56,801 nt of DNA. Origin: an uncultured Bacilli bacterium (GTDB taxonomy: Bacteria; Bacillota_I; Bacilli_A; RF39; UBA660). The position numbers and the translations under genes are program-made. A model generated the notes under the pieces. It did no database searches, was not told where the DNA came from, and saw only the letters and a program-made list of their open reading frames with translations. This document shows, one piece after another, positions 5,744 to 36,118 of this stretch; position 1 is the stretch's first letter; each line of letters starts with the position of its first letter. The stretch lies in NCBI GenBank assembly GCA_949065595.1, contig CARSXK010000004.1, positions 1 to 56,801 of the forward strand, read 5' to 3'.

Positions 5744-7405
5744 ATGCCAAGAACCATTAAAGTAAATTATAAAGATTTGGAAACCAAAGAATTCCCAGTA
5801 GGCGCGACGTTACTGGAAATTAGTCATGCCTTTGATCGCTACTATAATTATCCAATACTAGTAGGAAATGTAGACAATAATATTACGGAATTAAATGAGC
5901 CAATGACAAGAAGCTGCACCGTTGATTTTTATGATCGAAGTAGCGGAGTTGGAAATAGTATATATGGTAGAACCGCACAACTGATATTGATTTTGGCAAT
6001 CAAACGGGTTTTAGGTGAAAAAGCGGAAGTAATTATTGAGCATTCTATTGATAAAGGTTTTTATTGTGAAATTGAAAATGTTTCTATTGATAAAAAAGTA
6101 GTCAAGCAAATTGAAGATGAAATGTATGAAATTTCAAATCAGGATTTATTAATTCAGAAGGTGAGTGTGTCACGTTTTGATGCAATGAAATATTTTAAAA
6201 AGAAAAAGCAATTGGATAAGGTAAAAGTATTAAAATATATTAGTAACAGCTATATTAATTTGTATCGGATTGATGATTTGTATGACTATTTTTATGGAGA
6301 ACTTGCTTATAGTACAAAACAAATCGATGATTTTAAATTGACGTTTATTAAAGACAATGGATTTGTGTTAAGTTATCCTACCATGTATAACCCAGAGTGT
6401 ACGTTGGATTATATGCACCATAGTATGCTCTTTGATACATTTTTGAGTTATACCAAATGGGGAAATCAAATTGGCATTCGAAATGCAGCTGATTTAAATG
6501 AAATTGTATCACAAGGAAGATATAATGAGTTAATTCGTTTGTCAGAAGCTTATTATAATAGTCAATTATCTCGTATTGCAGATGAAATTGCTGAAAATCA
6601 TAAAAAAATAAAATTAATCTTAATCGCTGGACCTTCCTCATCTGGAAAAACAACGACTTCCAAAAAATTAGAAGTTTATTTGCAAAGTAAGGGAATTCAA
6701 ACGCATCAAATTTCTATCGACGATTATTTTTATGATCGAGACAAAACACCAAGATTAGAAAATGGGGAACTTGATTTTGAATCTTTGAATGCAGTAGATG
6801 TTACATTATTTAATAAACACTTAACCAAATTGTTAGATGGTGAGAAAGTAGAATTGCCAGAATACAATTTTGTTCTTGGTAAAAGAGAATACAAAGGAAA
6901 AACATTACAAATAGGAGAGGACGATGTGATTGTCATTGAAGGATTGCATGGGTTAAATGATGATTTGACAATTTCAATTGAACGAAGAAATAAATTTAAA
7001 ATTTATATCAGTCCTCTTACACAATTGAATATCGATAATCATAATCGAATTCATACCAGTGATACTCGGAAGTTAAGGAGAATTGTTCGTGACAATAAAT
7101 ATCGTTCCCATAGCGCGACAGATACATTGAAAATGTGGAAAAGCATTCGCGAAGGGGAAGAAAAGTATATATTTCCATATCAAGATCAGGCAGACGCTAT
7201 GATTAATTCTGCTTTGTTATATGAACTTGGCATATTAAAAACGTATGCAGAACCTCTTTTGTTTTCTGTTTCTGAAGATGATGAAATGTATCCAGAAGCA
7301 TTACGTTTGATTAATTTTTTAAGGAATTTTTTGCCAATCCCAAGTGATGATATACCAAACGATTCTATTTTAAGAGAATTCATTGGAGAAAGTTGTTTTC
7401 GATAA
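5744..7405 (+). CDS. uridine/nucleoside kinase family protein with ThrRS/TGS-like N-terminal region
   Basis: P-loop 'AGPSSSGKTTTSKKL' in the C-terminal half. The roughly 550-aa architecture is common in Firmicutes. Confidence 0.7.
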   Translation: MPRTIKVNYKDLETKEFPVGATLLEISHAFDRYYNYPILVGNVDNNITELNEPMTRSCTVDFYDRSSGVGNSIYGRTAQLILILAIKRVLGEKAEVIIEHSIDKGFYCEIENVSIDKKVVKQIEDEMYEISNQDLLIQKVSVSRFDAMKYFKKKKQLDKVKVLKYISNSYINLYRIDDLYDYFYGELAYSTKQIDDFKLTFIKDNGFVLSYPTMYNPECTLDYMHHSMLFDTFLSYTKWGNQIGIRNAADLNEIVSQGRYNELIRLSEAYYNSQLSRIADEIAENHKKIKLILIAGPSSSGKTTTSKKLEVYLQSKGIQTHQISIDDYFYDRDKTPRLENGELDFESLNAVDVTLFNKHLTKLLDGEKVELPEYNFVLGKREYKGKTLQIGEDDVIVIEGLHGLNDDLTISIERRNKFKIYISPLTQLNIDNHNRIHTSDTRKLRRIVRDNKYRSHSATDTLKMWKSIREGEEKYIFPYQDQADAMINSALLYELGILKTYAEPLLFSVSEDDEMYPEALRLINFLRNFLPIPSDDIPNDSILREFIGESCFR

Positions 7406-7422
7406 TAGAAAGAAGGAATAAA

Positions 7423-8430
7423 ATGACAAGAGTTGCGATTAATGGTTTTGGAAGAATTGGTAGACTTGTATTTCGAATAATAGAAGAAACACCTAATTTA
7501 GAAGTAGTTGCGATCAACGATTTAACAGATGCGGAACAATTAGCGTACCTATTAAAATATGATACCTCTCATCGTGTATATTTAAAAGAGGAAATATCAT
7601 TTGAAGGAAATGAGTTAATTGTTAATGGAAGACATATCCCTGTTTATGCAGAAAAAGATCCTTCACAGTTACCATGGAAGGAATTACAGATAGATCAAGT
7701 GATGGAATGTACAGGTGTTTTTACTGAAAAAGAAAAAGCACATGCCCATATTGATGCTGGGGCAAAGCATGTTATTATTTCTGCTCCTGCAAAGGGAGAT
7801 TTAAAAACAATTGTATATCATGTGAATGAAGAAAGGCTAGATGGTAGTGAGGAAATTATTAGTGCAGCTAGTTGTACAACCAACTGCTTGGCACCAGTTC
7901 TCTCTATTCTAGAAAAGGAATATGGAATTATATCTGGATATATGACGACCATTCACGCATATACAGGAGATCAAGCGGTACTAGATGTTGCTCACAAAAA
8001 AGGAATTCGTTCCCGCCGAGGACGTGCAGCCGCTGCTAACATTGTTCCAACTTCTACTGGTGCAGCCAGTGCGATAGGCGAGGTTATTCCACAGTTAAAG
8101 GGAAAATTGGATGGAAGTGCAGTACGTGTTCCTACAACTACGGGTTCGATGATTGATTTGACATTGCGATTGAAACGAAATGTAACAGTAGAAGAAATCA
8201 ATCGTTGCTTTTTAAATCATCAAAATGAGACCATTCAATATACAGAAGATCCAATTGTATCGAGTGACATAATTGGTTCTTATACTGGCGCTTTGGTAGA
8301 TGGATTATTAACTGATGTTCTTGAAGTCGATGGAGAACAGCTTGTAAAAGTTGTGGCGTGGTATGATAATGAAATGGGCTATAGTGCACAAATGGTAAGA
8401 TTAGCTTCTTATTTTGCTACCAAATTTTAA
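7423..8430 (+). CDS. gap: type I glyceraldehyde-3-phosphate dehydrogenase
   Basis: 'VAINGFGRIGR', active site 'SCTTNCLAP', 'WYDNEMGYS'. ATG 7423 follows AGAAGGA. Confidence 0.95.
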   Translation: MTRVAINGFGRIGRLVFRIIEETPNLEVVAINDLTDAEQLAYLLKYDTSHRVYLKEEISFEGNELIVNGRHIPVYAEKDPSQLPWKELQIDQVMECTGVFTEKEKAHAHIDAGAKHVIISAPAKGDLKTIVYHVNEERLDGSEEIISAASCTTNCLAPVLSILEKEYGIISGYMTTIHAYTGDQAVLDVAHKKGIRSRRGRAAAANIVPTSTGAASAIGEVIPQLKGKLDGSAVRVPTTTGSMIDLTLRLKRNVTVEEINRCFLNHQNETIQYTEDPIVSSDIIGSYTGALVDGLLTDVLEVDGEQLVKVVAWYDNEMGYSAQMVRLASYFATKF

Positions 8431-8735
8431 TAGGTTATTGTAATATCAAATGGGGGAATCATCCCTTTTTTGATGGCGAAACTATAATGATTTGTATGAG
8501 TGAAAAGATTGCTGTAAAAGAATAGTAAGGATAGATGGAGTACTATATAGGTTGTTTGAATTGTTTTGCAATATAGTAAGTATTTATTTTTTCTTTTAAA
8601 ATAGTGATTGGTATTGATAAAAAATGGAAAAAGATATAAAATAAAAAAGAAACATAAAACTTTATTATGGGGTTTCAAAATGAGATTGTATAACAATAGT
8701 TTATTGAAAACAATATAAAGATTATAGGAGGTCTT

Positions 8736-9920
8736 ATGAAAAAAACAATTCGCGATTATAGTTTAAAAGGTAAAAAAGTCCTCATTCGTGTTGATTTCAA
8801 TGTACCAATTTCAGATGGAAAAATTATGGATGATACTCGTATCAAAGCTAGCTTACCCACTATTTTGTATGCGATAGAAAATGGTGCAAAAGTGCTTCTT
8901 TTATCTCATTTAGGACGAATTAAAACAAGCGAAGATAAGCTACAATATGACTTATCTCCAATTGCAATACGTCTTGGTGAATTACTAAAACAAGATGTTA
9001 TTTTTGTAGATCAAACAAGGGGAAACTTGGTGGAAAATGCTATTTCAAAGTTACAAAATGGACAAGTTTTATTATTACAAAATACGCGATATGAAGATTT
9101 GGACGGGAAAAAGGAAAGTAACAATGATGCTGAACTGGGTGCTTATTGGGCAAGTTTAGGAGAAATATTCATTAATGATGCCTTTGGAACCAGCCATAGA
9201 GCACATGCTTCCAATGTTGGTATCGCCTCACATCTTCCCAATGGAATTGGTTTTTTAATCGAAAAAGAGTGGAATGCATTTATGCCGATTTTGACACAAC
9301 CCGCTCGACCATTTACTGTGATTTTAGGTGGCTCTAAAGTGAATGATAAAATAGAAGTGTTAGAACATTTGGTTACATTAGCTGATCAGATATTAATTGG
9401 TGGGGGAATGGCGTACACTTTCTTAAAGGCAAGTGGACTATCAATTGGTAAATCGTTATGTGATGAGGAACATATTGTGTATTGTAAAAATATAATGCAA
9501 CAATATCCTGATAAAATTATATTACCAATCGATAGTGTAAACGCAAAAGAAATCAATAAAGATACGGAAAGCCATGAACGTTTTATTAGTGATTTTCAGG
9601 AAGATGAAATTGGATTAGATATTGGTCATAATACAATTAAATTATTTGCTCAATATATCAGAAGTAGTAAGACGATTCTTTGGAATGGACCTGTTGGAAT
9701 GTTTGAATTACAACCTTTTAGTGAAGGAACGAAAGCCATTTGTCAGCTGTTAAAAGAAAATGATGGAATGACAGTAGTGGGTGGTGGCGATACTGCATCT
9801 GCGATTCAAAGTCTTGGATATTCAGAATTTGTAACACATATTTCAACTGGTGGTGGTGCTTCATTGGAATGGCTTGAAGGAAAAAATCTGCCTGGAATCG
9901 AGATTATTCATGAAAAATAA
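8736..9920 (+). CDS. pgk: phosphoglycerate kinase
   Basis: 'VLIRVDFNVP', 'FGTSHRAHAS', 'STGGGASLE'. Confidence 0.95.
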   Translation: MKKTIRDYSLKGKKVLIRVDFNVPISDGKIMDDTRIKASLPTILYAIENGAKVLLLSHLGRIKTSEDKLQYDLSPIAIRLGELLKQDVIFVDQTRGNLVENAISKLQNGQVLLLQNTRYEDLDGKKESNNDAELGAYWASLGEIFINDAFGTSHRAHASNVGIASHLPNGIGFLIEKEWNAFMPILTQPARPFTVILGGSKVNDKIEVLEHLVTLADQILIGGGMAYTFLKASGLSIGKSLCDEEHIVYCKNIMQQYPDKIILPIDSVNAKEINKDTESHERFISDFQEDEIGLDIGHNTIKLFAQYIRSSKTILWNGPVGMFELQPFSEGTKAICQLLKENDGMTVVGGGDTASAIQSLGYSEFVTHISTGGGASLEWLEGKNLPGIEIIHEK

Positions 9921-10923
9921 AAAATCAATTATTAATATTTTAATTTTACTTTTTATTACAGGATTTGTTCTATATTTTTCATTAAAAGATGATTTTGAAA
10001 ATATTGTTCATGAAATAGTTACACTCAATCCTCTTTGGTTTATAATTGCTATATTTTTAGTGATCTGCTACTGGTTATTCAAAGCCATTGAAGTTCATCA
10101 TGTGATTGGTGATTTTAAACCTGATTATACCTTCAAACAGACATTACGACTTACTTTATCCACCCAATTTTTCAACGCCATTACACCTTTTGCTTCTGGT
10201 GGACAACCCTTTCAAATTTATATGTTAAGTAAAAGTGGTATAAAATTAACCGATAGTACCAATATTATTATTCAAAATTTCATTGTTTATCAAATTCCTC
10301 TTGTTTTTTTGGGAATGATGGCGATTCTATCGAACCATTTTGGCCATTTTTTCAAAGAAGTCCATCTATTAAAATATTTGGTAACTATTGGATTTATTAT
10401 TAATACATTGGTTATCGTAGGTTTATTCATTATTGCATTTGCCCAAAAAACCAATAAAAGAATTATGCATGTTGTAATTAAGTTACTTCATAAATTACAT
10501 CTTGTGAAAAATAAGGAACAAAAAGAAACAGAATTTGAAGAGTACATCAATCGCTTTCATGCAGGTGCAAAATTATTATTTCATAATAAAAAACAGTTTA
10601 TTTCTTCTATTTTATATAATTTTATTGCTTTGCTATGCCTATATTTAATTCCTCTTGCCTTACTGTTTGCAATGGGTGATTATACGAGTATGAATGCGTT
10701 TCAAGTATTGGTTACGAGTGCTTATGTTATGTTGATAGGTTCTTTTGTACCAATTCCCGGTGGAACTGGTGGATTGGAATATGGATTTATTGCATTTTTT
10801 GGAAACTTTGTTGTCGGTAGTAAATTGAGTGCTGTTATGCTGTTATGGCGCGCGATTACTTATTATTTTGGGCTGATTGTAGGGGCCATTGCCTTTAACT
10901 TAAAGGGGAGAGAAGAAAAATGA
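9910..10923 (+). CDS. UPF0104 / lysyl-PG-synthase-TM-like (flippase-like) membrane protein
   Basis: Polytopic membrane protein, 'PFASGGQPFQIYML' and 'PIPGGTGGLEYGF'. The start is taken at ATG 9910 (MKNKKS), which overlaps the end of pgk. Confidence 0.7.
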   Translation: MKNKKSIINILILLFITGFVLYFSLKDDFENIVHEIVTLNPLWFIIAIFLVICYWLFKAIEVHHVIGDFKPDYTFKQTLRLTLSTQFFNAITPFASGGQPFQIYMLSKSGIKLTDSTNIIIQNFIVYQIPLVFLGMMAILSNHFGHFFKEVHLLKYLVTIGFIINTLVIVGLFIIAFAQKTNKRIMHVVIKLLHKLHLVKNKEQKETEFEEYINRFHAGAKLLFHNKKQFISSILYNFIALLCLYLIPLALLFAMGDYTSMNAFQVLVTSAYVMLIGSFVPIPGGTGGLEYGFIAFFGNFVVGSKLSAVMLLWRAITYYFGLIVGAIAFNLKGREEK

Positions 10924-12158
10924 GAATTGGAATATTTACGGATACCTATCCACCATTTATCAATGGGGTTTCTACAAGTATTTTGATGTTGGAACGAGCA
11001 CTAAAGAAAAAGGGACATCAAGTGTTTATAGTAACTGTAAATCCCGAAAATATGTCTTATAAATATGAAAATTATGATCATATCATTCGAATTCCTGGGA
11101 TTCCGATTGGAATCTATGACTATCGATTAACGGGTATTTATCCTATCCGTGCGATTAATAAAATAAAAAAATGGAATTTGGATGTCATTCATTCTCATAC
11201 TGAATTTGGAATTGGAACATTCGCACGTATCATTGCTAGGCAACTGGATGTGCCACTGGTTCATACCTATCATACGATGTATGAAGATTATGTTCATTAT
11301 ATTACAAAAGGACATTTTGATAAATCCAGTAAAAAAATTGTAGAATATTTAACCAAATTTTATTGTGATAAAACAGCAAGTGAATTGATTGTTCCGAGTA
11401 AAAAAACGTATGATTTATTTAAAGAAAAATATAAATTTGAAAAAAATGTTCATATTGTTCCAACGGGTATTGATGTAGAGCGGTTTTATAAAGAGCGACT
11501 CAAACATGATGAATTGCTTACAATCAAACAAGAACTCGGTTTAAAACCAGAGAATTTTGTAATTATCTATGTAGGTCGACTTGCCAAAGAGAAGAGTGTA
11601 GAATTACTACTGGAAGCACAGGTAGATCTTGTTAAGAAGTATCCATATTGTAAGTTAGTAATCGTCGGTAGTGGTCCTGACTATGAGCATTTTATTCAAA
11701 TGAGTATGGATTTAGGAATTTCTCAATCCGTTATTTTTACCAATGCGATAGCATGGGAGGAAGTACCTAATTATTATGGCATTGCCGATGTATTTGCAAC
11801 CGCATCTAAAACAGAAACACAAGGGCTGACAGTAGTGGAGGCTATGGCTGCTTCTTTGCCTGTGGTATGTGTAGATGATGAGAGTTTTAGGGACGTTGTT
11901 GTTGATGGTTTAAATGGATATTTATTTAAAACAAAAAGACAATATCGTACTTGTATGGAGACTTTGATTCAAAATAAGGAAACACTATTTCATATGCAAA
12001 ATCAAGCTCGTATTACCGCAGATGAACATTCCTTAAAATATTATGCTGAAAAAGTCTTGGATGTATATCACAGTGCTTTGGAAGCGAAACGAAGTGAAAA
12101 ACGATTTATAGATAAAGTAAAAGATGTTGTAAAACGTGGATTTGACGATAAATCCTAG
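10920..12158 (+). CDS. family-4 glycosyltransferase (glycolipid synthase-like)
   Basis: 'MRIGIFTDTYPPFINGVS' and the 'E..GLTVVEAMA' EX7E motif. The ATGA overlap suggests translational coupling to the upstream membrane protein. Confidence 0.8.
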   Translation: MRIGIFTDTYPPFINGVSTSILMLERALKKKGHQVFIVTVNPENMSYKYENYDHIIRIPGIPIGIYDYRLTGIYPIRAINKIKKWNLDVIHSHTEFGIGTFARIIARQLDVPLVHTYHTMYEDYVHYITKGHFDKSSKKIVEYLTKFYCDKTASELIVPSKKTYDLFKEKYKFEKNVHIVPTGIDVERFYKERLKHDELLTIKQELGLKPENFVIIYVGRLAKEKSVELLLEAQVDLVKKYPYCKLVIVGSGPDYEHFIQMSMDLGISQSVIFTNAIAWEEVPNYYGIADVFATASKTETQGLTVVEAMAASLPVVCVDDESFRDVVVDGLNGYLFKTKRQYRTCMETLIQNKETLFHMQNQARITADEHSLKYYAEKVLDVYHSALEAKRSEKRFIDKVKDVVKRGFDDKS

Positions 12159-12170
12159 CGTTAAGTTGTG

Positions 12171-12205
12171 AGAAGTTGTTTGATATTCAACTTCTTTCTT
12201 TTTTC
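12171..12205 (+). terminator. intrinsic terminator
   Basis: AGAAGTTG/CAACTTCT 8-bp stem followed by a T-rich tail. Confidence 0.7.
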
Positions 12206-12209
12206 GACA
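12203..12209 (-). promoter_or_regulatory. perfect Spo0A box (TGTCGAA on minus strand)
   Basis: TTCGACA lies 90 nt upstream of the spo0A start codon. Confidence 0.4.
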
Positions 12210-12298
12210 AAACTAGCTAATTTTTTCTCTAGTAAAGTAAGTGTATAGTGTAGTATAATAAATCAAGATAGCAGTACGATTTAGAAAGGAAGACAGAA

Positions 12299-13069
12299 AT
12301 GAAACATACCAGAGTACTTATGATAGACGACAATGTAAATTTAGTCGAAATGGTCAAGGAGTATTTTAGTAGTAGTGAACAGATTAGTATTGATTTAGTG
12401 GCTTATGATGGGCAGGAAGGGATACAAATTATTGAGGAAAAAAAGGATGAGTACGATTTAATTTTATTGGATTTGATTATGCCTAAAAAAGATGGAATGT
12501 ATGTATTGGAGGAAATGAAAGCACGCGATATTGATAAAAAAGTCATTGTGGTAACAAGCTATAATACCAGTGATATCATTCGTGAAGTTTCTGAATATGG
12601 AGTTAATTATTTTTTACTCAAACCATTTGAACTTTCTGATTTACAAAAACGAATTGTAGAAGCAACCAAAGGCAATAACGTACAAAATAAGAATATTGAT
12701 TTTTATCATAACAATCTCCAGATTTCTATTACGAAAATTTTGCACGAATTGGGGATTCCTTCTCATATTAAAGGATATCAATATATTCGGGAGGGAATTG
12801 GAATTATCTATGAAAGACCAGAAACGATTGGTGGAATTACCAAAGAATTGTACCCAGAGCTTGCTTCTAAATTTGATACAACTGTATCTCGTGTAGAACG
12901 TGCGATTCGTCATGCGATTGAAGTCAGTTGGAATCGTGGTAATTGGGATTTGATGGAAGAAATTTTTGGGCATAGCGTCGATATTGATAAGGCAAAACCA
13001 ACCAATTCAGAATTTATTGTGACAATTGCAGATAAATTAAAATTAGAAGGAAATAAAATAGGGGCATAG
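12299..13069 (+). CDS. spo0A: sporulation master regulator Spo0A
   Basis: Receiver domain ('VLMIDDN', 'LLDLIMP') plus the Spo0A-specific C-terminus '[15 protein letters not shown]'. Confidence 0.95.
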
Positions 13070-13175
13070 CAATATGTCTTTTTTGATGGATTTGATATGT
13101 AAAATTTACTGTAATATTTGGAAAATGACATTCTTTTATGTCAAAAATTATTAATTTTAGGTATAATAAGAAATA

Positions 13176-16028
13176 ATGGAGATGATTGTTTTGAAACCAG
13201 TTCTACTTTGTATATTAGATGGTGTTGGGATGCGCAAAGAGATTTATGGAAACGCCTTCTTACAAGCCAAAACACCTAATTTTGATGATTTATGGAAGAA
13301 ATATCCACATAGTTATTTGGAAGCAAGTGGTTCTTCTGTAGGCCTTCCAGAAGGACAAATGGGCAACAGTGAAGTGGGGCACTTAAATATTGGAGCTGGT
13401 AGAATTGTATATCAACCATTACAATTAATTACACAAAAAATAAAAGACAAAAGCTTTTTTGAAAATGAGCATCTATTAGATGTGATACATTATGCAAAAA
13501 AAAATAAGACTCGTTTACAGATTTTTGGATTATTAAGTGATGGGGGAATTCATTCTCATATTAATCATTTGATGGCTATTATCGACTTGTGCCAAAAAGA
13601 AGATATGCATGATGTTTACTTTCATGTATTTACGGATGGAAGAGATACGTTAAGCAATGTGGCTCTTTCTTATTTGGATCAATTGCAACAAAAAATAGAA
13701 GAAACCGGAATTGGTAAAATTGCAACCATCACTGGTAGATACTATGCGATGGATCGTGACAATCGATATGACCGTATCAAGAGGGCATACGATGCTTGTG
13801 TAAAAGGAAAGGGGAAAAAGTTTAGCACTTATCAGGATGTAATTGAACATCATTATGAAAAGGGTATTACTGATGAATTCATAGAACCTTCCGTATTAGA
13901 TATCAATGGATGTGTCAAAAAAGGAGATGGCTTACTGGTATTTAATTATAGACCTGATCGTTTGCGTGAACTTTTTTCGGCTTTCACAAACCCTAAATTC
14001 AATGGGTTTAAGCGAAAGAAAATACCAAATTTAAAATTGGTAACTATGATGCCTGTTAGTAATGAAGTAATCTATGAAGCTGCATTTACCAATGAAAAAA
14101 TGGATAACACATTGGGAGAATATGTCAGTAAACAAGGGTTAAAACAATTACGTATTGCTGAAACAGAAAAGTATGCCCATGTTACTTATTTTTTGGATGG
14201 TGGTGAAGAAAAGTCGTTAACAGAATGTGATCGTATTTTAATTCCCTCCCCTAAAGTTGCTACTTATGATCTGGCACCCGCTATGAGTGCAAACGAAATT
14301 ACCGATACCTTACTTCAAAAATTGGATGAAAATCTTTATGATTTGGTGATTCTCAATTTTGCAAACGGAGATATGTTAGGACATACTGGAAACATGGAAG
14401 CTGCCATTCAGAGTTTGGAAATAATGGATATTTGTTTGGGGAAACTATATCAAAAAATCAAGGAAAAGAACGGCCTAATGATTGTGACAGCTGATCATGG
14501 TAACTGTGAATTTATGTTAGATGAAAACCAAAACAAAATTACTTCTCATACAACTAGTTTGGTCCCTTTTATTGTCACCAAAACTGATATCGCCTTACAA
14601 GATGGAAAACTTTCTGATATCGCACCGACGGTACTGTCTTTGCTCAAACTGGATATACCTGTTGAAATGACTGGCAAAAGTTTATTAAGAAATTTCAAAA
14701 AAAGATTTGGGTTTCGTTTTTGGTTTATTTTATTATCTTGTTTGTTTTTGATGGGGATTATTTTGAATTATGGATATCGTTTTTTCCATTTTTATCATTT
14801 GGCACATCAGGAAAGGGATGCACAAAAAAGTACATTACATGATATGATTTTGCGCAATTCTCCTTTGGTGGCTAGTGGAGATGGACTTTATTTTGATCAA
14901 AATCGGTATGTATTTAAAGGTATGGTTAACAATAATTATGTGTACTATTCCAATCGTTATTTTCGTATTGTACGTGTCAATCAGGATGGCTCTATTGTTT
15001 TGATTGCAGATGACATTGTAACGTCATTGGTATGGAATTACAAAGATACTGATTATACCAATTCTTATATTCGTAGTTGGTTAAATGCGAGTGACAAAGA
15101 TTATACAGGTATTTTTTATCATAGTCTTGAACATCCAGATAATTATATTATGGAAACTTCTTATTGTGTGGATGTGGTCGATGGAGAAAATCTGACTTGT
15201 AAGCAAACAGTAACAGATCAAGTAGGATTGCTCAGTATTGCGGAATATAAAGAGGCTATGGGACATTTGAGTTACCTAAATATCGGTAAATACTGGTGGA
15301 CAAGCAATTCCTCAATGGATGGGCAAGTATGGTATGTATTTAGCGAGGGTGGTATTCATTCTAAATCAAATATGCATGATATTTATTATGCGTATGGTGT
15401 ACGTCCTGTCATTACATTAAAGCCAGATGTTCATTTTGTAAGTGGAAATGGAAGTAAGGAAAATCCATACCTTATTACTCCACCAAGTCAGCAGCTTAAT
15501 ATTGGAAGTTATGTTACATGGAATGATAATATATGGCAGGTACTGGATATAACTGAAGAAGATATTCGTCTAATGAAACATGAAGTATTAACCATTGATT
15601 CCAAGATGGTATCTCGTATATTTTCCAATCGTTCTAACCAGTATAATCCAAATGATTTGGGATCCTTGGCGTATTATTTAAACCATAATTATTTGCAGTC
15701 GTTATCCAATTCTAATTTAATAGTAGATGCTTTATGGTATAATGGAACTTATGGGGATTCTTATGATTATCAAAATATATATGGAAGTACAGTACAGGCA
15801 AAAGTAGGGATGGTAACTGTTGGAAATTTATATGGTAGTACCGACCAATCCTTTGTTACTATGACTGGAATGCATGATGATTTACTTTATTTTGTTTCCA
15901 ATCAAGGAATGCTATCTACTGCGGATATTGAAACTGAATTTGCCGTAAAGCCTGTTGTTGCTATTTCCAAATCAGTAAAAATTTTAGGCGGCAATGGTAT
16001 GAAACAGGATCCATTTGTGATAGGATAG
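13176..16028 (+). CDS. gpmI: 2,3-bisphosphoglycerate-independent phosphoglycerate mutase fused in frame to a TM helix and a ~420-aa extracellular domain
   Basis: Residues 1-505 are canonical iPGM ('GNSEVGHLNIGAGR', 'TADHGN', ending 'EMTGKSLL'). There is no stop codon. The ORF continues 'RNFKKRFGFRFWFILLSCLFLMGIIL' and then a region with a 'YWWTSNS...YGVRPVITLK' type repeat. Confidence 0.85.
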   Translation: MEMIVLKPVLLCILDGVGMRKEIYGNAFLQAKTPNFDDLWKKYPHSYLEASGSSVGLPEGQMGNSEVGHLNIGAGRIVYQPLQLITQKIKDKSFFENEHLLDVIHYAKKNKTRLQIFGLLSDGGIHSHINHLMAIIDLCQKEDMHDVYFHVFTDGRDTLSNVALSYLDQLQQKIEETGIGKIATITGRYYAMDRDNRYDRIKRAYDACVKGKGKKFSTYQDVIEHHYEKGITDEFIEPSVLDINGCVKKGDGLLVFNYRPDRLRELFSAFTNPKFNGFKRKKIPNLKLVTMMPVSNEVIYEAAFTNEKMDNTLGEYVSKQGLKQLRIAETEKYAHVTYFLDGGEEKSLTECDRILIPSPKVATYDLAPAMSANEITDTLLQKLDENLYDLVILNFANGDMLGHTGNMEAAIQSLEIMDICLGKLYQKIKEKNGLMIVTADHGNCEFMLDENQNKITSHTTSLVPFIVTKTDIALQDGKLSDIAPTVLSLLKLDIPVEMTGKSLLRNFKKRFGFRFWFILLSCLFLMGIILNYGYRFFHFYHLAHQERDAQKSTLHDMILRNSPLVASGDGLYFDQNRYVFKGMVNNNYVYYSNRYFRIVRVNQDGSIVLIADDIVTSLVWNYKDTDYTNSYIRSWLNASDKDYTGIFYHSLEHPDNYIMETSYCVDVVDGENLTCKQTVTDQVGLLSIAEYKEAMGHLSYLNIGKYWWTSNSSMDGQVWYVFSEGGIHSKSNMHDIYYAYGVRPVITLKPDVHFVSGNGSKENPYLITPPSQQLNIGSYVTWNDNIWQVLDITEEDIRLMKHEVLTIDSKMVSRIFSNRSNQYNPNDLGSLAYYLNHNYLQSLSNSNLIVDALWYNGTYGDSYDYQNIYGSTVQAKVGMVTVGNLYGSTDQSFVTMTGMHDDLLYFVSNQGMLSTADIETEFAVKPVVAISKSVKILGGNGMKQDPFVIG

Positions 16029-16035
16029 GTGTTGT

Positions 16036-17046
16036 ATGAAAAAAAAGAAAGTGATTATTTTATTTGGTTTTTTGGACTTTATGGCTATTGTATTTCTATT
16101 TTTTACATATGGGCCAATCTCTTATTTCCGTGATTTATGGATTACAACGTCAATGACAACTATGAATCATAAATATTTGGCGCGTGTTCTTTATAGTGAA
16201 AAAACGATATATCAGGTGTTGAGTGAGAATTATTTAAAAGAGGTAGAAGAAAATACGGATACCAGCCAAATTGATTTTAGTGGAATAGTAGAGCAAGAAC
16301 ATTATGAATCTATTTATGAAGAACAGGTTTTAAAAAAAGAAGAGGACAATGATCTTTATAAAGTTGTGCCACTTTCTGGGAGTGGATATAAAGGACATAT
16401 GGTGGTAATTTATGATCCGAGTAAAGTACAACTCGCTCTTGCAGAACATTTGGGAACCAATGGTGAGGTATTGACTAGAATGTCTAGGCGTTTATCATTT
16501 CAGGTTGGAATCAATGCGGGTGGTTTTGCGGATGCAGGCGGAGTTGGAAGTGGGGGTATTCCCACTGGAACGGTCATTCACAATGGTCAAATTATATACC
16601 GAGGACCCGAAACTGGTTGGACAGGTGGGTTGATTGGTTTTACTAGTGACCATGTATTGATGTTAACAAAAGAGAGTCCCGAGGTTGCGATCGCAAATGG
16701 GATGCGTGATGCTGTTGAATTTGGTCCTTTCTTAATTGTCAATGGAAAACGTGCGATTGCACGTGGAAATGGTGGATGGGGCGTTTCTTCTAGAACTGTT
16801 ATTGCTCAACGTCAAGATGGCATTGTATTATTTATTGTAATCGATGGGAGACAACCTGGACACAGTATTGGAATTAATATGGTTGATTTAACCAATTTAT
16901 TGGTACGTTATAAAGCTTATAATGCTGCTAATTTAGATGGTGGTGCTTCAACTGATTTGGTCATCAATCAACAATTAATCAATAAGCCATGTGGAATTGG
17001 CGGAAATGGAGAAAGAAGATTACCAAATGCATGGATTGTAAAATAG
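16036..17046 (+). CDS. phosphodiester glycosidase (NAGPA/DUF2233) family protein, membrane anchored
   Basis: N-terminal TM helix and 'AANLDGGASTDLV' near the C-terminus. Confidence 0.6.
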   Translation: MKKKKVIILFGFLDFMAIVFLFFTYGPISYFRDLWITTSMTTMNHKYLARVLYSEKTIYQVLSENYLKEVEENTDTSQIDFSGIVEQEHYESIYEEQVLKKEEDNDLYKVVPLSGSGYKGHMVVIYDPSKVQLALAEHLGTNGEVLTRMSRRLSFQVGINAGGFADAGGVGSGGIPTGTVIHNGQIIYRGPETGWTGGLIGFTSDHVLMLTKESPEVAIANGMRDAVEFGPFLIVNGKRAIARGNGGWGVSSRTVIAQRQDGIVLFIVIDGRQPGHSIGINMVDLTNLLVRYKAYNAANLDGGASTDLVINQQLINKPCGIGGNGERRLPNAWIVK

Positions 17047-17114
17047 ACGAGTTCTATTTTTTTGATACTGTTTTCTTCTCTTTTTGCATATGATGGATTG
17101 GGGAGGTAAGTTGT

Positions 17115-18188
17115 GTGTATCGAGGAAAGTATCAAAAATTATTAATTGTAGTTTCCATTTTTTTAGTTGGAATTCTTTTGTTCTTTGTTTTGAAACCACG
17201 ACAAAAAAAGCAGGATGAATACACTTGTTATCCACAAATTATTTTAAAAGGTAATAAGATTGTTTCCGTTTTTGTTGGGGAGGAGTATCAAGAATCTGGG
17301 TATGAATTAAAAGATAGTTGTGGTGAAAATTTAGAGAGTAGAATTGAAATTCAAAGTGATTTGAATAGTAATAGACCAGGTACTTATCAAATTGTTTATA
17401 AGGTTAGTAATCAATATGGTAATTTTACAGAGGAAAAACGATATGTAACAGTAAAGGCAAGTTCTCTTTCTTATCAGGATACTTACGATAAGATTGATAA
17501 TAAGGTACGGGGCTGGGGAATTCCCAATAAGAAGGATGGAGCACGACCCATTGAAGCAGGCAGTGTGAGAGAAAACCTGTTGCAATATAATGCGTATTTA
17601 ATTGGAAATGATGAAAAAAAACTATATTTGACATTTGATGAAGGAAGCAATGATACCTATTTGGAACAAATTGTAGATATACTGAATGCGAATGATGTGA
17701 AGGCAACTTTCTTTTTCTGTAGAAGATATATATTGGATCATCCTGAATTGATGAAAAAATTAGTGGAAACAGGGCATTCAGTTGGGAACCATACAGCTAA
17801 TCACTATCAGATGCCAAAATATGCAACAAGGGAAGGCTTTTCAAAATATATAGATGAGATTACAGCTGTAGAAGTGGCATTTGAACAGGTAACTGGCACT
17901 TCAATGGACCGTATTTACCGGGAGCCAAAAGGGGAATATAGTTATCGTAGTTTGCAGATTGTCAAGGATTTAGGGTATAAGACCTATTTTTGGAGCGTTG
18001 CCTATTTAGATTATGCGGATGATGTGAGCAAAGAAAGAGCTTTTCAAGAACTCACTTCTAGAGTACATAATGGCGCGATTTATTTGATTCATCCTAAAAA
18101 TAAAGGTAATTATGAAGCTATGGATGATTTTATTAAAGCGATGAAACAACAAGGTTATACATTTGATTTGGTAAAAAATATTGGATAA
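17115..18188 (+). CDS. PdaA-like polysaccharide (MurNAc) deacetylase with N-terminal TM helix and Ig-like domain
   Basis: 'LYLTFDEG', 'GNHTANH', 'FWSVAYLDY' and 'GAIYLIH' closely parallel B. subtilis PdaA motifs. GTG start behind GGGAGG. Confidence 0.8.
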   Translation: MYRGKYQKLLIVVSIFLVGILLFFVLKPRQKKQDEYTCYPQIILKGNKIVSVFVGEEYQESGYELKDSCGENLESRIEIQSDLNSNRPGTYQIVYKVSNQYGNFTEEKRYVTVKASSLSYQDTYDKIDNKVRGWGIPNKKDGARPIEAGSVRENLLQYNAYLIGNDEKKLYLTFDEGSNDTYLEQIVDILNANDVKATFFFCRRYILDHPELMKKLVETGHSVGNHTANHYQMPKYATREGFSKYIDEITAVEVAFEQVTGTSMDRIYREPKGEYSYRSLQIVKDLGYKTYFWSVAYLDYADDVSKERAFQELTSRVHNGAIYLIHPKNKGNYEAMDDFIKAMKQQGYTFDLVKNIG

Positions 18189-18196
18189 TTTATTAG

Positions 18197-18237
18197 AAAA
18201 ACGATTCACGGAGATAAAACATCAGAATCGTTTTTTT
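18197..18237 (+). terminator. intrinsic terminator of the pdaA-like gene
   Basis: AAAAACGATTC/GAATCGTTTTT stem followed by a T-run. Confidence 0.75.
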
Positions 18238-18749
18238 GATAAAAATTATTCTAATGTAGGGAAGGGATTAAAAAATAAGGTAGATATATTTTTTAAATTT
18301 ATTAATAACGTTATCAATAAACATAAAGGTAAATTACATAACAAATTAATGAAAGAATTTGGAATTAATTCTAATATAAATAATATGTTAATAAGTAGAA
18401 TATTTAATGTAAAATCTAGATTTAAAGATACGGGTGAATTTATAAAAGTAAAAACTTATTACTGGGAATTAATATTTTAATCATTTAATAGTTAAAGAAT
18501 TGTTTGACCAAAAAGTAAAGTATCGATTTTATTATTAATTTTGGTTTACTATGTAAGAAAATTATATCTATGGGACTGCATTTATTAATGTGGTTTTTTC
18601 TTTATAAGTGTCTTACTAGTGAGAAATAATTAGTATTTGTTAAATAATTTTACGCAAATAGTCAAATTTTCTTGAATTTCATGTTATACTTAAATTAGAA
18701 AGGTGCTAATCTGAAAGAAAAATATATTTATTACGAAAAGGCGAGAGGA

Positions 18750-19076
18750 ATGAGTATTAATATGGAAGAATTAACTAAAAAGATAAGAAAATTTGCAGAG
18801 GAAAGAGATTGGTTACAATTTAACACCCCAGAAAATCTTGCTAAATCAATTGCGATAGAGGCTGGAGAATTATTAGAGTGTTTTCAGTGGAATAGCAATT
18901 ATGATAAGGATGAATTAAAATATGAAATAGCGGATGTAATGAATTATTGTATATTATTGTGTTCACAAATAGGAGTGAATCCGAAAGAAATAATTCTTGA
19001 AAAAATGGATATATCTGCTAAAAAATATCCAGTTGATAAGGCAAAAGGAGTTAGTACAAAATATACTAAATTATAG
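18750..19076 (+). CDS. MazG-like / DCTPP1-like nucleotide pyrophosphohydrolase
   Basis: 'FAEERDWLQFNTPENLAKSIAIEAGELLECFQW...EIADVMNYCILL' is the typical short all-alpha NTP-PPase pattern. Confidence 0.7.
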   Translation: MSINMEELTKKIRKFAEERDWLQFNTPENLAKSIAIEAGELLECFQWNSNYDKDELKYEIADVMNYCILLCSQIGVNPKEIILEKMDISAKKYPVDKAKGVSTKYTKL

Positions 19077-19095
19077 TTTTAAGGAGATATATACT

Positions 19096-20868
19096 ATGGA
19101 ATTAACCAATCCTATTATAAAAAAAATAGAGGACAATGAATTTAGTTTAAGCCAATTTGAAGAACAAATAAATGCCTGTAAAGATAAAAATGAAAAAATG
19201 ATTATACGGGATTATCCAACTGTATATATTCATACATGGGAAAATAAGGGTATTTATGAGGTTTATGTTGGAGAAACAAATGATATTTTTAGAAGAACAA
19301 GACAGCATTATGAGGATAGCCGATTTGCAGAAAACTGGCAATATAATTTAAAGTTAAGTGATAATAGTTTATATGTGATAGGCCATGAGCATTTTAATAA
19401 GTCATTAACTTTGGATATTGAAAATAAATTAAGAGATTATTTAACGGGTGTTGATAGTGTTAGGAGAGTTCATAATATAAAGGCAAATCCACAAAATCAG
19501 TATTATCCAGCAAATGAATTTGATCAAATATTTCATAAAATATGGAAAAATTTAACAAAATATAATAATAAATTATTTCCTTTAGAGAGTGAAGTAATTA
19601 ATTCTGCAATTTTTAAAGCCTCACCATTACATAAACTAACCAGAGATCAACAAAGGGCAAAGGAATTAATAATAAGTAAAATTATAGAGGCATCAATCAC
19701 TAGAAAAAGTGGAAAATTAATATTTGTAGAGGGTGGAACAGGAACTGGTAAAACAGTATTAAATAGTAGTACTTTTTACGAATTATGTTGTATGAATGAG
19801 ACATCTATTGAGGATGATTCTAAACCAAAAATTAAAGAATTAAAATGTTGTTTAATTGTTAATCACAAGGAACAAGAAAATCTTTATAGACAAATATTCA
19901 AAAAATTTGGTATTGAGGATAATACTTTATATTCCCCAATTAAGTTTATTAATAAGCATGACATTAATAGCCCTATTGATGTTGCATTCATAGATGAGGC
20001 ACATTTATTGTTAACGCAGGGTAAGCAATCTTATAAAGGTAAGAATCAGTTGCAGGATATTATGAACCGTGCACGGGTAACTGTTGTAATGTTTGATATG
20101 AGTCAAATTTTGACTGTTGAACAATATTGGGAATATGAACTTTTAGAAAAATATAAAAATATGGCAAGAGAAAATAATAATTATATTGTTCTTACAGAAC
20201 AATTAAGAATTCAAGCGAACAAAGATGTTATTCAATGGATTGAGAACTTTACGAAAAATGGTATTGTTACTAAACTTCCAAATAATTTAGAAAACTATGA
20301 TATTAAGGTATTCGATACACCAAAGCTTTTAGAAGATATGATAAAGCAGAAAGCAAAGGATAAAAATTCGAAATTGTCTAGATTAGTGGCTACATATGAT
20401 TGGAAATATAGTTCCTTGTATACAAATAATGAACAATATTGGGAAGTAACTATAGGTAAATGGCATAAACCATGGAATTATGAAATGGCCAGAAAATTTA
20501 ACAGGAATGAGAAAAAGAAAATTAAGGACAAAGCTTGGGATGAACAAGAACATACTATTGATGAGATAGGATCAACATTTACAATTCAGGGCTTTGATTT
20601 AAATTATGTTGGTGTGATTATAGGACCATCGGTAAAATATAGAAATAATCGGATTGTTTATTGTCCTGAGTTTAGCTGGAATCGCAGGGCAGTTATAAAA
20701 AGAAGGATGTCTGATGGTACCTATAAAGAATTCGGGGAACAATTAATAAAAAATCAATTAAGAGTATTAATGACTAGAGGTGTCAATGGTCTATATATTT
20801 ATGCATGTGACGAAGAATTAAGAGAACATTTAAAAAAATGTGTTGAAAAAAGATACATATATAAATAG
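19096..20868 (+). CDS. GIY-YIG nuclease domain fused to a DUF2075 (Schlafen-group-3-helicase-like) P-loop ATPase
   Basis: N-terminal 'KGIYEVYVGETNDIFRRTRQH' (GIY...YVG...R), Walker A 'GGTGTGKT', Walker B 'VAFIDEAH', C-terminal 'LRVLMTRGVNGLYIY'. ATG 19096 follows AAGGAG, 19 nt after the MazG-like stop. Confidence 0.65.
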   Translation: MELTNPIIKKIEDNEFSLSQFEEQINACKDKNEKMIIRDYPTVYIHTWENKGIYEVYVGETNDIFRRTRQHYEDSRFAENWQYNLKLSDNSLYVIGHEHFNKSLTLDIENKLRDYLTGVDSVRRVHNIKANPQNQYYPANEFDQIFHKIWKNLTKYNNKLFPLESEVINSAIFKASPLHKLTRDQQRAKELIISKIIEASITRKSGKLIFVEGGTGTGKTVLNSSTFYELCCMNETSIEDDSKPKIKELKCCLIVNHKEQENLYRQIFKKFGIEDNTLYSPIKFINKHDINSPIDVAFIDEAHLLLTQGKQSYKGKNQLQDIMNRARVTVVMFDMSQILTVEQYWEYELLEKYKNMARENNNYIVLTEQLRIQANKDVIQWIENFTKNGIVTKLPNNLENYDIKVFDTPKLLEDMIKQKAKDKNSKLSRLVATYDWKYSSLYTNNEQYWEVTIGKWHKPWNYEMARKFNRNEKKKIKDKAWDEQEHTIDEIGSTFTIQGFDLNYVGVIIGPSVKYRNNRIVYCPEFSWNRRAVIKRRMSDGTYKEFGEQLIKNQLRVLMTRGVNGLYIYACDEELREHLKKCVEKRYIYK

Positions 20869-21094: not shown

Positions 21095-21118
21095 GATACA
21101 CATTGTATCGTTTTTTTT
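21095..21118 (+). terminator. intrinsic terminator just inside the left end
   Basis: GATACA-CAT-TGTATC stem-loop, then G and T8. It would block read-through from the amidase promoter. Confidence 0.6.
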
Positions 21119-21189
21119 ATTTTGTCAAGGTAAAGGTCTTACCATGAGTTTATTTGCAATTCGTGTCTATAATAGTGTCATGAAAGGAG
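21113..21189 (+). promoter_or_regulatory. repeated ~77-nt regulatory module, copy A
   Basis: About 87% identical to 25092..25168. Contains TTGTCAA, dyad GGTAA-N5-TTACC, TATAAT and SD GAAAGGAG. Confidence 0.6.
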
Positions 21190-21196
21190 CAAAAAA

Positions 21197-25091: not shown

Positions 25092-25168
25092 TTTTTTATT
25101 TTGTCAAGGTAAAGGCTTTACCGTGAGTTGATTTGCAAGTTGTGGTTATAATGGTGTCACGAAAGGAG
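25092..25168 (+). promoter_or_regulatory. repeated ~77-nt regulatory module, copy B
   Basis: Paralog of 21113..21189. The dyad here is GGTAAAG-G-CTTTACC. Confidence 0.6.
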
Positions 25169-25178
25169 GAAAGAGGCA

Positions 25179-30512: not shown

Positions 30513-31692
30513 TGGGAGTGATCCAGGCGCTGTTGCAAATGGTGTTCAAGAAAAAGATTTAAACTTGCAAATAGCCCGTTATATGTATGAACAGTTTCAA
30601 AATAGGGGAATTCCTGTAACATTAATTCGTAGCACAGATGAAACCATTAGTCCAACAGAACGTGTTAATAGAATACTTGCTGCCTATGGTGATAACCCTA
30701 ATGTAGTTGTTATTTCCAATCACATTAATGCATCAGGATCAGCAACATCGGGCGCAGAGGGTGCTGAAGTAATCTATGCTTTGAGAAATGATGATACACT
30801 TGCCAAAAATATATTACAGGCGATTGGAAACCAAGGGCAAGTTGTAAGAACCTATTATCAAAGACGATTACCAAGTGATACTTCAAAGGACTACTACTTT
30901 ATTCACAGAAATACAGGTAGTACCCAACCTGTGATTGTAGAATATGGATATATTGACAATCCATCCGATTTAGCACGTATTCAAAATAATTATAAAAAAT
31001 ATGTGGATGCTGTTGTAAATGCAGTTATCGCAACCAAACAAGGGCAAACTATTCCGTCTGCACCAGGAACAGGAACTTCTTATGTGGTGAAACCAGGAGA
31101 TAGTTTATGGAGTATCGCAAATCGCTATAATACTACTGTAAATGCAATTAAAAATATGAATAATCTAACAAGTAATACCCTATCAGTAGGGCAGGTACTA
31201 CAAATACCAACCAGTACATCTACTGGGACAGGAACAACTTATACTGTAAAATCAGGGGATAGTCTATGGAGTATCGCAAATCGTTATAATACTACTGTGG
31301 ATGCGATTAAAAATGCCAATAATTTAACTAGCAATACCTTATCGATTGGGCAAGTACTGCAAATACCAACGAGTACATCTACTGGGACAGGAATAACTTA
31401 TACTGTAAAATCAGGGGATAGTTTATGGAGTATTGCAAATCGTTATAATACTACTGTAAGTGCAATCAAAAGTGCCAACAATTTAACAAGTGACATACTA
31501 TCCATTGGGCAAGTACTACAAATACCAACGAGTACATCTACTGGGGCAGGAACTACTTATACCGTGAAATCAGGAGATAGTTTGTGGAGCATTGCGAATC
31601 GTTATAATACTACTGTCGATGCCATCAAAAAAGCGAGTGGAATTATCAGTAATAATTTAACCATTGGTCAAGTATTAACCATTCCAAATTAG
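30513..31692 (+). pseudogene. 3' portion of the split N-acetylmuramoyl-L-alanine amidase (Amidase_3 + 4 LysM)
   Basis: The frame opens at 30496 and reads 'GHGGSDPGAVANGVQEKDLNLQIARYM...ISNHINAS...EYGYIDN', then four LysM repeats. It has no start or SD of its own (the track uses TTG 30565). Confidence 0.8.
31081..31689 (+). repeat. four tandem ~159-bp LysM-plus-TSTSTGTG-linker coding repeats
   Basis: 'TYTVKSGDSLWSIANRYNTTV.AIK.ANNLTSN.LSIGQVLQIP' occurs four times with near-identical DNA. Confidence 0.9.
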
Positions 31693-36039: not shown

Positions 36040-36118
36040 GGGACAGATTTCTGTTCTTTTTCTTTGATTTCTTATGATTTATATAGTATAATGAGAATGG
36101 TAGAAAGAAGGATAAATC

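Follow-up and report, generated by a model that had tools for sequence, protein, structure and literature searches.

The DNA analyzed here, referred to below as the window, is a 56,801-nt stretch (positions 1 to 56,801 of contig CARSXK010000004.1, assembly GCA_949065595.1) from an uncultured Bacilli bacterium whose draft genome (G000) comprises 1.17 Mb in 45 contigs and is 87% complete. On its forward strand, 950 codons stay open from 13176 to 16028 with no internal stop. This open reading frame (ORF) begins as gpmI, the gene for cofactor-independent phosphoglycerate mutase (iPGM), and passes directly into a transmembrane (TM) helix and a two-module ectodomain. The architecture is that of a housekeeping glycolytic enzyme serving as the cytoplasmic domain of a surface-protein anchor. 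Its component families are already known, and a cluster look-up found fused sequences, without names, in public protein collections; no description of the architecture was found in the searchable literature, a search that does not extend to subscription journals. The parts of the ORF are given below, with the basis for each (SD, Shine-Dalgarno; AF2, AlphaFold2).

13176..16028, plus strand: whole fused ORF, 950 aa; iPGM, linker, TM helix, and predicted tandem lectin-fold ectodomain
13194..14687, plus strand: GpmI moiety, residues 7-504, predicted to be cytoplasmic; TIGR01307, 2ify_A (E 1.4e-161)
14667..14669, plus strand: in-frame ATG, M498, within the conserved iPGM motif EMTG; weak SD pairing
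14691..14711, plus strand: basic linker NFKKRFG, residues 506-512; pLDDT <50 at 508-512
14697..14703, plus strand: run of seven A's (A7) flanked by C and G, lysine codons of the positive-inside patch; sequence
14712..14798, plus strand: TM and juxtamembrane helix, residues 513-541, including the YGYR motif; hydropathy, AF2, conservation
14994..15422, plus strand: ectodomain module 1, DUF6273 (PF19789), residues 607-749; Pfam, AF2, fold match
15486..16025, plus strand: ectodomain module 2, residues 771-950, degenerate and predicted to share the lectin fold; structural matches, internal repeat

The iPGM half is matched from end to end. TIGR01307 covers residues 7-504 with its full profile (1-504 of 504; 676.9 bits, or 679.1 bits in the genome search, with a cut-off of 330.65 bits), and Pfam places Metalloenzyme (PF01676) at 7-493, interrupted by iPGM_N (PF06415) at 85-292, which is the two-domain iPGM build. 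Residues 7-504 align to positions 2-507 of the 508-residue chain of 2ify_A, the best solved relative. Because the alignment with solved iPGMs runs from end to end, residue ~505 is the natural iPGM C terminus, where the first-pass annotation had put it. Among separate iPGMs of related genomes (n = 23), the stop codon lies 1 to 9 residues past EMTGxSLI. The window ORF continues into linker 506-512, which joins this natural C terminus to the natural N terminus of the anchor protein.

The same annotation had described a signal-anchor-like helix after the iPGM, and both hydropathy and AF2 bear this out with a single hydrophobic segment at 513-541. Kyte-Doolittle 19-residue windows scoring ≥1.6 start at residues 510-516 (maximum, 2.16 at residue 512); the only other such window is the first β-strand of iPGM. 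Five K/R residues precede the TM segment (residues 498-513) and one follows it, and the segment is conserved in all eight fused orthologues. In the full-length AF2 model (80-row alignment; mean pLDDT, 92.4; pTM, 0.56), iPGM 1-505 and the C-terminal domain are confident, and a single continuous helix at 513-541 stands between two low-confidence linkers, 508-512 and 541-550. The fused ORF thus probably specifies a bitopic membrane protein with its N terminus inside and its C terminus outside (Nin-Cout).

Profile searches of the C-terminal region returned DUF6273 for module 1, residues 607-749 on profile positions 4-171 of 172, at 27.5 bits in the whole protein and 29.5 bits in the C-terminal part (gathering score, 23.5 bits); module 2 has no Pfam match. 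NCBIfam gave no match for the ectodomain or for the NAGPA-like protein encoded downstream, and the protein Atlas gave nothing beyond the same DUF6273 or hypothetical clusters. Module 1 carries YWWTS...YGVRPV and the Cys pair C664/C675, which is nearly invariant in the A1 alignment. Two copies of such a motif had been noted at first; two homologous modules of the same predicted fold are indeed present, but the motif itself is not kept in the second, a degenerate homologue (FVTMT...FAVKPV) with 28% identity to module 1 over 58 aa (E 2e-7).

The AF2 model of the ectodomain (residues 546-950; 84 homologues) is confident, with pLDDT 95.5 and pTM 0.93. Among solved structures, the only one that Foldseek matched significantly was 9qa6, the IgA peptidase of Thomasclavelia ramosa (E 5.4e-7). 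The VIA search matched module 2 to the N-terminal domain of 9qa6_A (Z 16.8; rmsd, 2.7; 171 residues; 15% identity) as its best structural match and, at the 5-10% identity level of a shared fold, to the C-terminal domain of Legionella Lcl (8Q4E; Z 8.5), Treponema TvpA (2Y3C; Z 7.8), and Bordetella phage Mtd (1YU0; Z 5.7), followed by dozens of C-type lectin domains at Z 5-6. For module 1, the match was the C-type lectin CEL-I, at a Z of 5.3 that is weak on its own. On these models, both modules have a C-type-lectin-like fold, and the ectodomain is probably an extracellular module that binds a ligand such as a glycan or wall polymer.

Two papers are consistent with this assignment: DUF6273 is described as a C-type-lectin-like, variable receptor-binding module in phages (PMC10743442), and the N-terminal domain of 9qa6 (ThomasA NTD) is named DUF6273 (PMC12402451). 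In the latter protein, DUF6273 is N-terminal in a secreted, sortase-anchored M64 protease, whereas here it is C-terminal, TM-anchored, and protease free. Tentaclins (PMC10743442) likewise bind through the C-type-lectin fold; the window contains no template repeat of a diversity-generating retroelement (DGR). No direct repeat of ≥40 nt in the 56.8-kb window involves 14900-16028, except for one T-rich TM-coding match, and a reverse transcriptase was not searched for; within this scope, the ORF shows no signature of a DGR target protein. The papers found on DUF6273 do not deal with the fused architecture.

An extracellular position of the ectodomain fits the nearly invariant Cys pair and the prepilin-type N termini of paralogues. 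Such proteins, P0034, P0035, P0037, L016 (G016:C1), and L018 (G007:C36), have type IV pilin-like N termini (GFTLIE/GFTLVE, PF07963) and no plain anchor; Pfam found no prepilin motif (PF07963) in the window protein. Genomes G020, G014, and G022 gave 30, 20, and 15 ectodomain matches; most of these are 450 to 750 aa long, have just a motif of ~40 residues (query residues 71-108) in common, and look like large paralogous surface-protein families.

The fused frame is open in all seven genomes of the genus (944-965 aa in the other six) and in G012, which belongs to another genus (928 aa), and none of these orthologous loci has a stop after gpmI. Within the genus, identity to the window protein is 78.6-84.5% in the iPGM and 58.4-83.2% in the ectodomain; for G012 it is 55% and 37%, respectively. 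Across the eight genomes, the junction has changed by substitutions and in-frame indels, and the basic patch, the TM helix, and YGYR persist. A search of a 5.8-billion-protein collection gave 70 matches to the C-terminal region, 23 of which were iPGM-ectodomain proteins of 925-948 aa, with ectodomain identities from 100% down to 32%; the fused clusters come from four sources (NCBI, ENA, JGI, and Logan). In seven pairs (Nei-Gojobori), the ratio of nonsynonymous to synonymous divergence (dN/dS) is 0.066-0.089 for the iPGM and 0.12-0.26 for the ectodomain, at dS values of 0.13-1.9 that are mostly near or above 1. These low ratios at such divergence imply that both halves have long been under purifying selection while fused, and a 950-codon frame kept open in AT-rich DNA in eight genomes is far beyond chance.

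The first-pass annotation had pointed to the A7 run lying on the junction, the loss of one A being enough to end the frame. Deleting one A does create a stop at residue 525, 16 residues past F508, and with one A inserted, the frame stops at residue 556. Once the run is frameshifted, the first start codons in the original frame lie inside the TM helix, and none precedes it. The closest relative, G006 (83% identical), has AAGAAGAAA at the junction and no run of 6 or more, and it is equally fused. In place of the read pileups suggested at first, we compared contigs from four runs of four studies, three of which may include the source sample: they show the same A7, with 0 differences and 0 gaps over 14655-15100. 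Mouse-gut metagenome runs from 10 studies contain the stretch. Because G006 is fused without the run and the four contig sets are identical over the tract, we conclude that the A-run does not maintain the fusion; it represents simply lysine codons in an AT-rich genome. Programmed frameshifting at the run is ruled out as well, both by the lack of conservation of the run and by the short tails that the shifted frames would add. By all these comparisons, the fusion is genuine, conserved in relatives, and not a sequencing error. Of the three options raised at first, a membrane-tethering fusion is the one that these data support.

The tethered enzyme retains what a mutase is expected to need. All 24 fused rows of our alignment preserve 83 of the 96 columns that are invariant in the 23 separate iPGMs. 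Invariant in both groups are D15, S65, H126, R156, D157, R188, R194, R259, R262, K332, D399, H403, D440, H441, and H458, which correspond to the catalytic and ligand-binding residues of the Geobacillus structures; the 2ify_A alignment supports the correspondence of all 15 positions. The moiety thus shares with GpmI (TIGR01307; 2IFY, 1EJJ) the full-length match, both domains, and the catalytic and metal columns. Known GpmIs are soluble, stand-alone proteins of ~510 aa (range, ~500-525 aa), whereas the fused protein has 950 aa and runs on into a TM helix and a 400-aa ectodomain. It contains a GpmI, yet it is atypical as a GpmI protein.

No other mutase was recognized. A profile search of G000 found no second iPGM, and the fused iPGM is the only one in 5/5 genomes of the genus; no cofactor-dependent phosphoglycerate mutase scored above the cut-off in 5/5 genomes, G012 among them. 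The single His_Phos_1 protein of G000 (177 aa, in the window) falls below every NCBIfam cut-off, and the second Metalloenzyme-family gene of G000 encodes phosphopentomutase. Five relatives at 87-92% completeness present the same picture, with the fused iPGM as the only mutase. The genes gap, pgk, and eno are all present in G000, the first two 3-6 kb upstream in the window and eno on another contig. Since the active residues are intact and no other mutase was found, the tethered iPGM very probably carries the cell's glycolytic interconversion of 3-phosphoglycerate (3-PGA) and 2-phosphoglycerate (2-PGA).

The ectodomain also exists without the enzyme. Stand-alone anchor proteins form >100 clusters (380-510 aa), the few named ones as "hypothetical protein"; in most of the bacterial family, they are ~440-465 aa and have a short basic N terminus, a TM helix, and YGYR. 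Like the fusion, these DUF6273 anchors (the 445-aa gene of G060; P0073-P0180) combine the basic N terminus, TM helix, YGYR, and the same two-module ectodomain (30-40% identity) with a NAGPA-like gene downstream; unlike the fusion, each starts from an SD and start codon of its own and lacks a cytoplasmic enzyme. We sampled the family with one genome per genus (61 genomes, 49 of which have an iPGM above the cut-off, the separate ones with open frames of 483-534 aa). Only 4 of the 49 other iPGM loci have an anchor homologue directly downstream of gpmI, and in the remaining 45, gpmI and the anchor gene are unlinked. One of the four, G012, is fused; the others, from three sister genera (G046, G060, and G078), are unfused, in the order gpmI, anchor protein, NAGPA-like. 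Such adjacent, separate genes are likely the precursor state.

The unfused junctions differ. In G060, a TAA stop is followed by a 57-nt spacer with GAGGTAGG, a good Shine-Dalgarno sequence, and ATG; in G046, TAA, AGGTGGA, and ATG lie within 14 nt. In G078 (L068 1430-1610, G078:C6), gpmI ends with TAA, and the anchor frame, a different one, is open 27 nt upstream; its sole candidate start is a GTG behind AGAGGA in an A-rich stretch, one indel from fusion. This may be a pair of overlapping genes, or else a fusion that a single indel has disrupted. Dependence of the fusion on homopolymer length or sequencing error, another of the options raised at first, does not hold for the genome in the window, given G006 and the four contig sets; a weaker, evolutionary form of that idea survives in the overlapping frames of G078. 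A programmed frameshift in G078 was rejected for lack of a canonical slippery site in the sequence, as judged by eye. The downstream protein of G078 has only 360 aa, and its branch in the tree is very long (1.8-1.95).

At the other extreme stands P0023 (581 aa, from a 90.8-kb contig), which groups within the fused ectodomain clade. Its first 150 residues are a decayed iPGM stub that begins with MKPVVICFL, has no Pfam match, and has lost the catalytic motifs; only the last ~60 residues of the stub can still be aligned, to residues 436-503 of iPGM. In P0023, the TM anchor and both modules with the predicted lectin fold remain intact. The ectodomain therefore needs no active iPGM, and the continued use of the old gpmI start speaks against an internal start in the fused genes. 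This suggests that the ectodomain is translated from the gpmI start.

Taking these findings together, we consider it likely that 13176..16028 encodes one real Nin-Cout bitopic protein, made as a single fusion from the gpmI start, and we hold with good confidence that one polypeptide is made whose halves function on their own sides of the membrane. In the scenario that we favor, gpmI would have come to lie upstream of an anchor-NAGPA pair, and loss of the stop and spacer would then have produced the fusion. It could be tolerated because any N-terminal extension on the cytoplasmic side is compatible with a Nin-Cout signal anchor. The iPGM half would remain in the cytoplasm, ~8 residues from the inner membrane face, still interconverting 3-PGA and 2-PGA; the ectodomain, having no start of its own and being produced from that of gpmI, would bind a glycan or wall ligand outside, alongside the NAGPA-like enzyme and the deacetylase, whose genes would be co-transcribed with the fusion. 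Each half probably works on its own, with the fusion mainly fixing co-expression and setting iPGM at the membrane.

Several observations weigh against this picture, or against its simplest form. At residue 115 (window 13518-13520), the genus clade has Q throughout in place of the H that is invariant in the 23 separate iPGMs, and G000, at 87% completeness, could have a second mutase in unassembled DNA. On the iPGM tree (24 fused and 23 separate rows, with 5 separate loci left out by a motif filter and 20 more distant loci also omitted), the fused label needs five changes; well-supported branches force at least two, and the approximately unbiased test rejects a single fused clade (p 0.011). The quick ectodomain tree (58 rows) conflicts with this, placing 23 of the 24 fused ectodomains together (SH-aLRT, 92), with P0026 outside. 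"One fusion from adjacent genes" is therefore too simple: as far as the trees indicate, fissions, several fusions, or recombination must have occurred besides one fusion. All 11 genus-clade rows have Q115, and so does P0017.

One alternative is that the ORF yields two products, a soluble iPGM and an anchored ectodomain, by internal initiation, as raised in the first-pass annotation, or by proteolysis of the linker. The in-frame ATG at 14667 lies 14 codons ahead of the TM helix, the sequence from there (MTGKSLLRNFKKRF...) resembles stand-alone N termini, and linker 508-512 is K/R-rich and predicted to be flexible. However, this ATG is part of the invariant iPGM motif EMTG, and it was correctly said to lack a good SD: pairing to the anti-SD motif before it is -3.1 kcal/mol, against a median of -5.85 kcal/mol for the starts of 34 long ORFs in the window and -2.6 kcal/mol for 29 internal ATGs of the same fused ORF, and at the equivalent ATG of seven orthologues it is 0.0 to +0.7 kcal/mol. 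The gene's own start at 13176 is weak too (-3.7 kcal/mol), so a weak SD need not prevent initiation here. Still, the clear SD that precedes the anchor gene in unfused relatives is gone from the fused genes, the useless stub retained as the N terminus of P0023 is hard to square with an ectodomain start of its own, and internal initiation would give no free iPGM anyway. We regard two products as unlikely.

A second alternative accepts the single fused protein and adds functional coupling across the membrane: an ectodomain ligand would control the iPGM, or the iPGM would be positioned for a task at the envelope or spore cortex. In Bacillus, iPGM activity gates 3-PGA storage in forespores, and here spo0A and a PdaA-like deacetylase gene are neighbors in a genome with SpoIVA. 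The adjacency of gpmI to the anchor-NAGPA pair even where unfused (three genera), the retention of the fused frame at dS ~1, and the very short tether of ~8 residues all speak for coupling. On the other side, the P0023 ectodomain persists after decay of its iPGM, 45 of the 49 other iPGM loci of the family are unlinked to the anchor gene, no residue-level sign of a new interface was found, and AF2 gives no defined interdomain arrangement (pTM, 0.56). We therefore judge coupling to be quite improbable, and equally so its specific form as a receptor-like enzyme in which lectin modules would signal the state of wall, cortex, or gut glycans to the sole phosphoglycerate mutase.

Finally, that a miscounted A-run or assembly error erased a real stop between two genes, as the A7 at the junction with its stop 16 codons past F508 upon loss of one A, the draft state of G000, and the frame-shifted junction in G078 might suggest, is extremely improbable in view of the fused frame in eight genomes with differing junctions and in-frame indels (G006 without a homopolymer), the 23 fused clusters from four sources, the agreement of the contigs, and the lack of any start codon ahead of the TM helix after a frameshift.

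Single-fusion translation into a bitopic protein, the reading we prefer, invites comparison with known systems. Central glycolytic enzymes are textbook soluble proteins. Among fusions of them, Thermotoga PGK-TPI arose from neighboring genes; there, two soluble enzymes of the same pathway are joined, whereas here an enzyme is joined to an unrelated membrane-anchored surface domain. The PknB/PrkC kinases with PASTA domains also consist of a cytoplasmic enzyme, one TM helix, and an extracellular binding repeat, and their activity responds to the ectodomain. The fusion has the same predicted topology, but those are signaling enzymes, and here the enzyme is a housekeeping mutase whose coupling to the ectodomain is hypothetical.

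The only recognizable mutase of a reduced gut bacterium thus appears tied to the membrane and to a surface domain, a state kept across the genus and beyond. If the fusion is merely tolerated, it would offer a clean natural case of operon neighbors fusing across the membrane, with each of its three stages still represented among relatives (separate genes, the fusion, and a fusion whose enzyme has decayed to a stub). A functional fusion would connect the state of the envelope directly to carbon flux. Were coupling true, lower glycolysis and the spore 3-PGA pool would be gated or localized by an envelope signal, and selection for that coupling would account for the recurrent pairing of gpmI with the anchor, as neighbors in three genera and as a fusion in others. 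For annotation, the locus is a warning that a "950-aa GpmI" can conceal an unrelated surface protein. The ectodomain family, large (>100 clusters) and always paired with a NAGPA-like enzyme, is entirely uncharacterized, and our literature search found nothing on the anchor/NAGPA-like gene pair.

Two envelope genes follow the fusion.

16036..17046, plus strand: NAGPA-like phosphodiester glycosidase with an N-terminal TM segment; PF09992, 133.6 bits
17115..18188, plus strand: polysaccharide deacetylase with an Ig-like domain; PdaA-like, below the equivalog cut-off

The first begins 8 nt past the stop of the fusion, and a NAGPA homologue was found by tblastn in 20/20 tested anchor-gene loci; in the ORF maps, it lies directly downstream. 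PF09992 upholds the initial NAGPA-like assignment, and PdaA is the best NCBIfam match of the deacetylase, at 199.2 bits, below the cut-off of 298. A complex prediction for the ectodomain with residues 30-336 of the NAGPA-like protein (score, 0.02; mark, 0.32) is evidence in neither direction.

Upstream, window 7393-13069 contains gap (7393-8430) and pgk (8736-9920), then three genes before gpmI: an LPG_synthase_TM-like membrane protein (9850-10923), a GT4 glycosyltransferase (10920-12158), and spo0A (12299-13069; Spo0A_C, 134.9 bits). No tpi lies between gap, pgk, and gpmI in the window. SpoIVA is encoded elsewhere in the genome (G000:C24:7555-9027; 714 bits, over the cut-off). With Spo0A and SpoIVA in ~1.2 Mb at 87% completeness, G000 is a candidate for a very small mouse-gut endospore former.

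A promoter-like ATGTCA-18-TATAAT lies at 13138-13167, its -10 box ending 8 nt before ATG 13176; the fusion gene may accordingly have a very short leader or be leaderless. A scan of 12900-18600 yielded 28 promoter-like sites against 31.7 expected, i.e., chance frequency, and no plus-strand terminator was found in the same interval.

Elsewhere in the window, a MazG-like pyrophosphohydrolase gene (108 aa) overlaps the start of a gene for a 623-aa Schlafen group 3-type helicase (PF09848, 289.7 bits) at 18750-20868, a possible defense-type pair. Two tandem acetate-kinase-like genes (34846-37300), just after the 177-aa histidine-phosphatase gene, appear as direct repeats D2, D4, D7, and D8, with 71-88% identity and ~1273 spacing. 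At 31066-31683, three copies of a 159-nt unit (79-85% identity) stand in tandem. An 81-nt element is repeated with 86% identity at 21113-21193 and 25092-25172; it has TTGTCA...TATAAT-like boxes and ends with GAAAGGAG, and it may be a shared promoter/leader of two genes.

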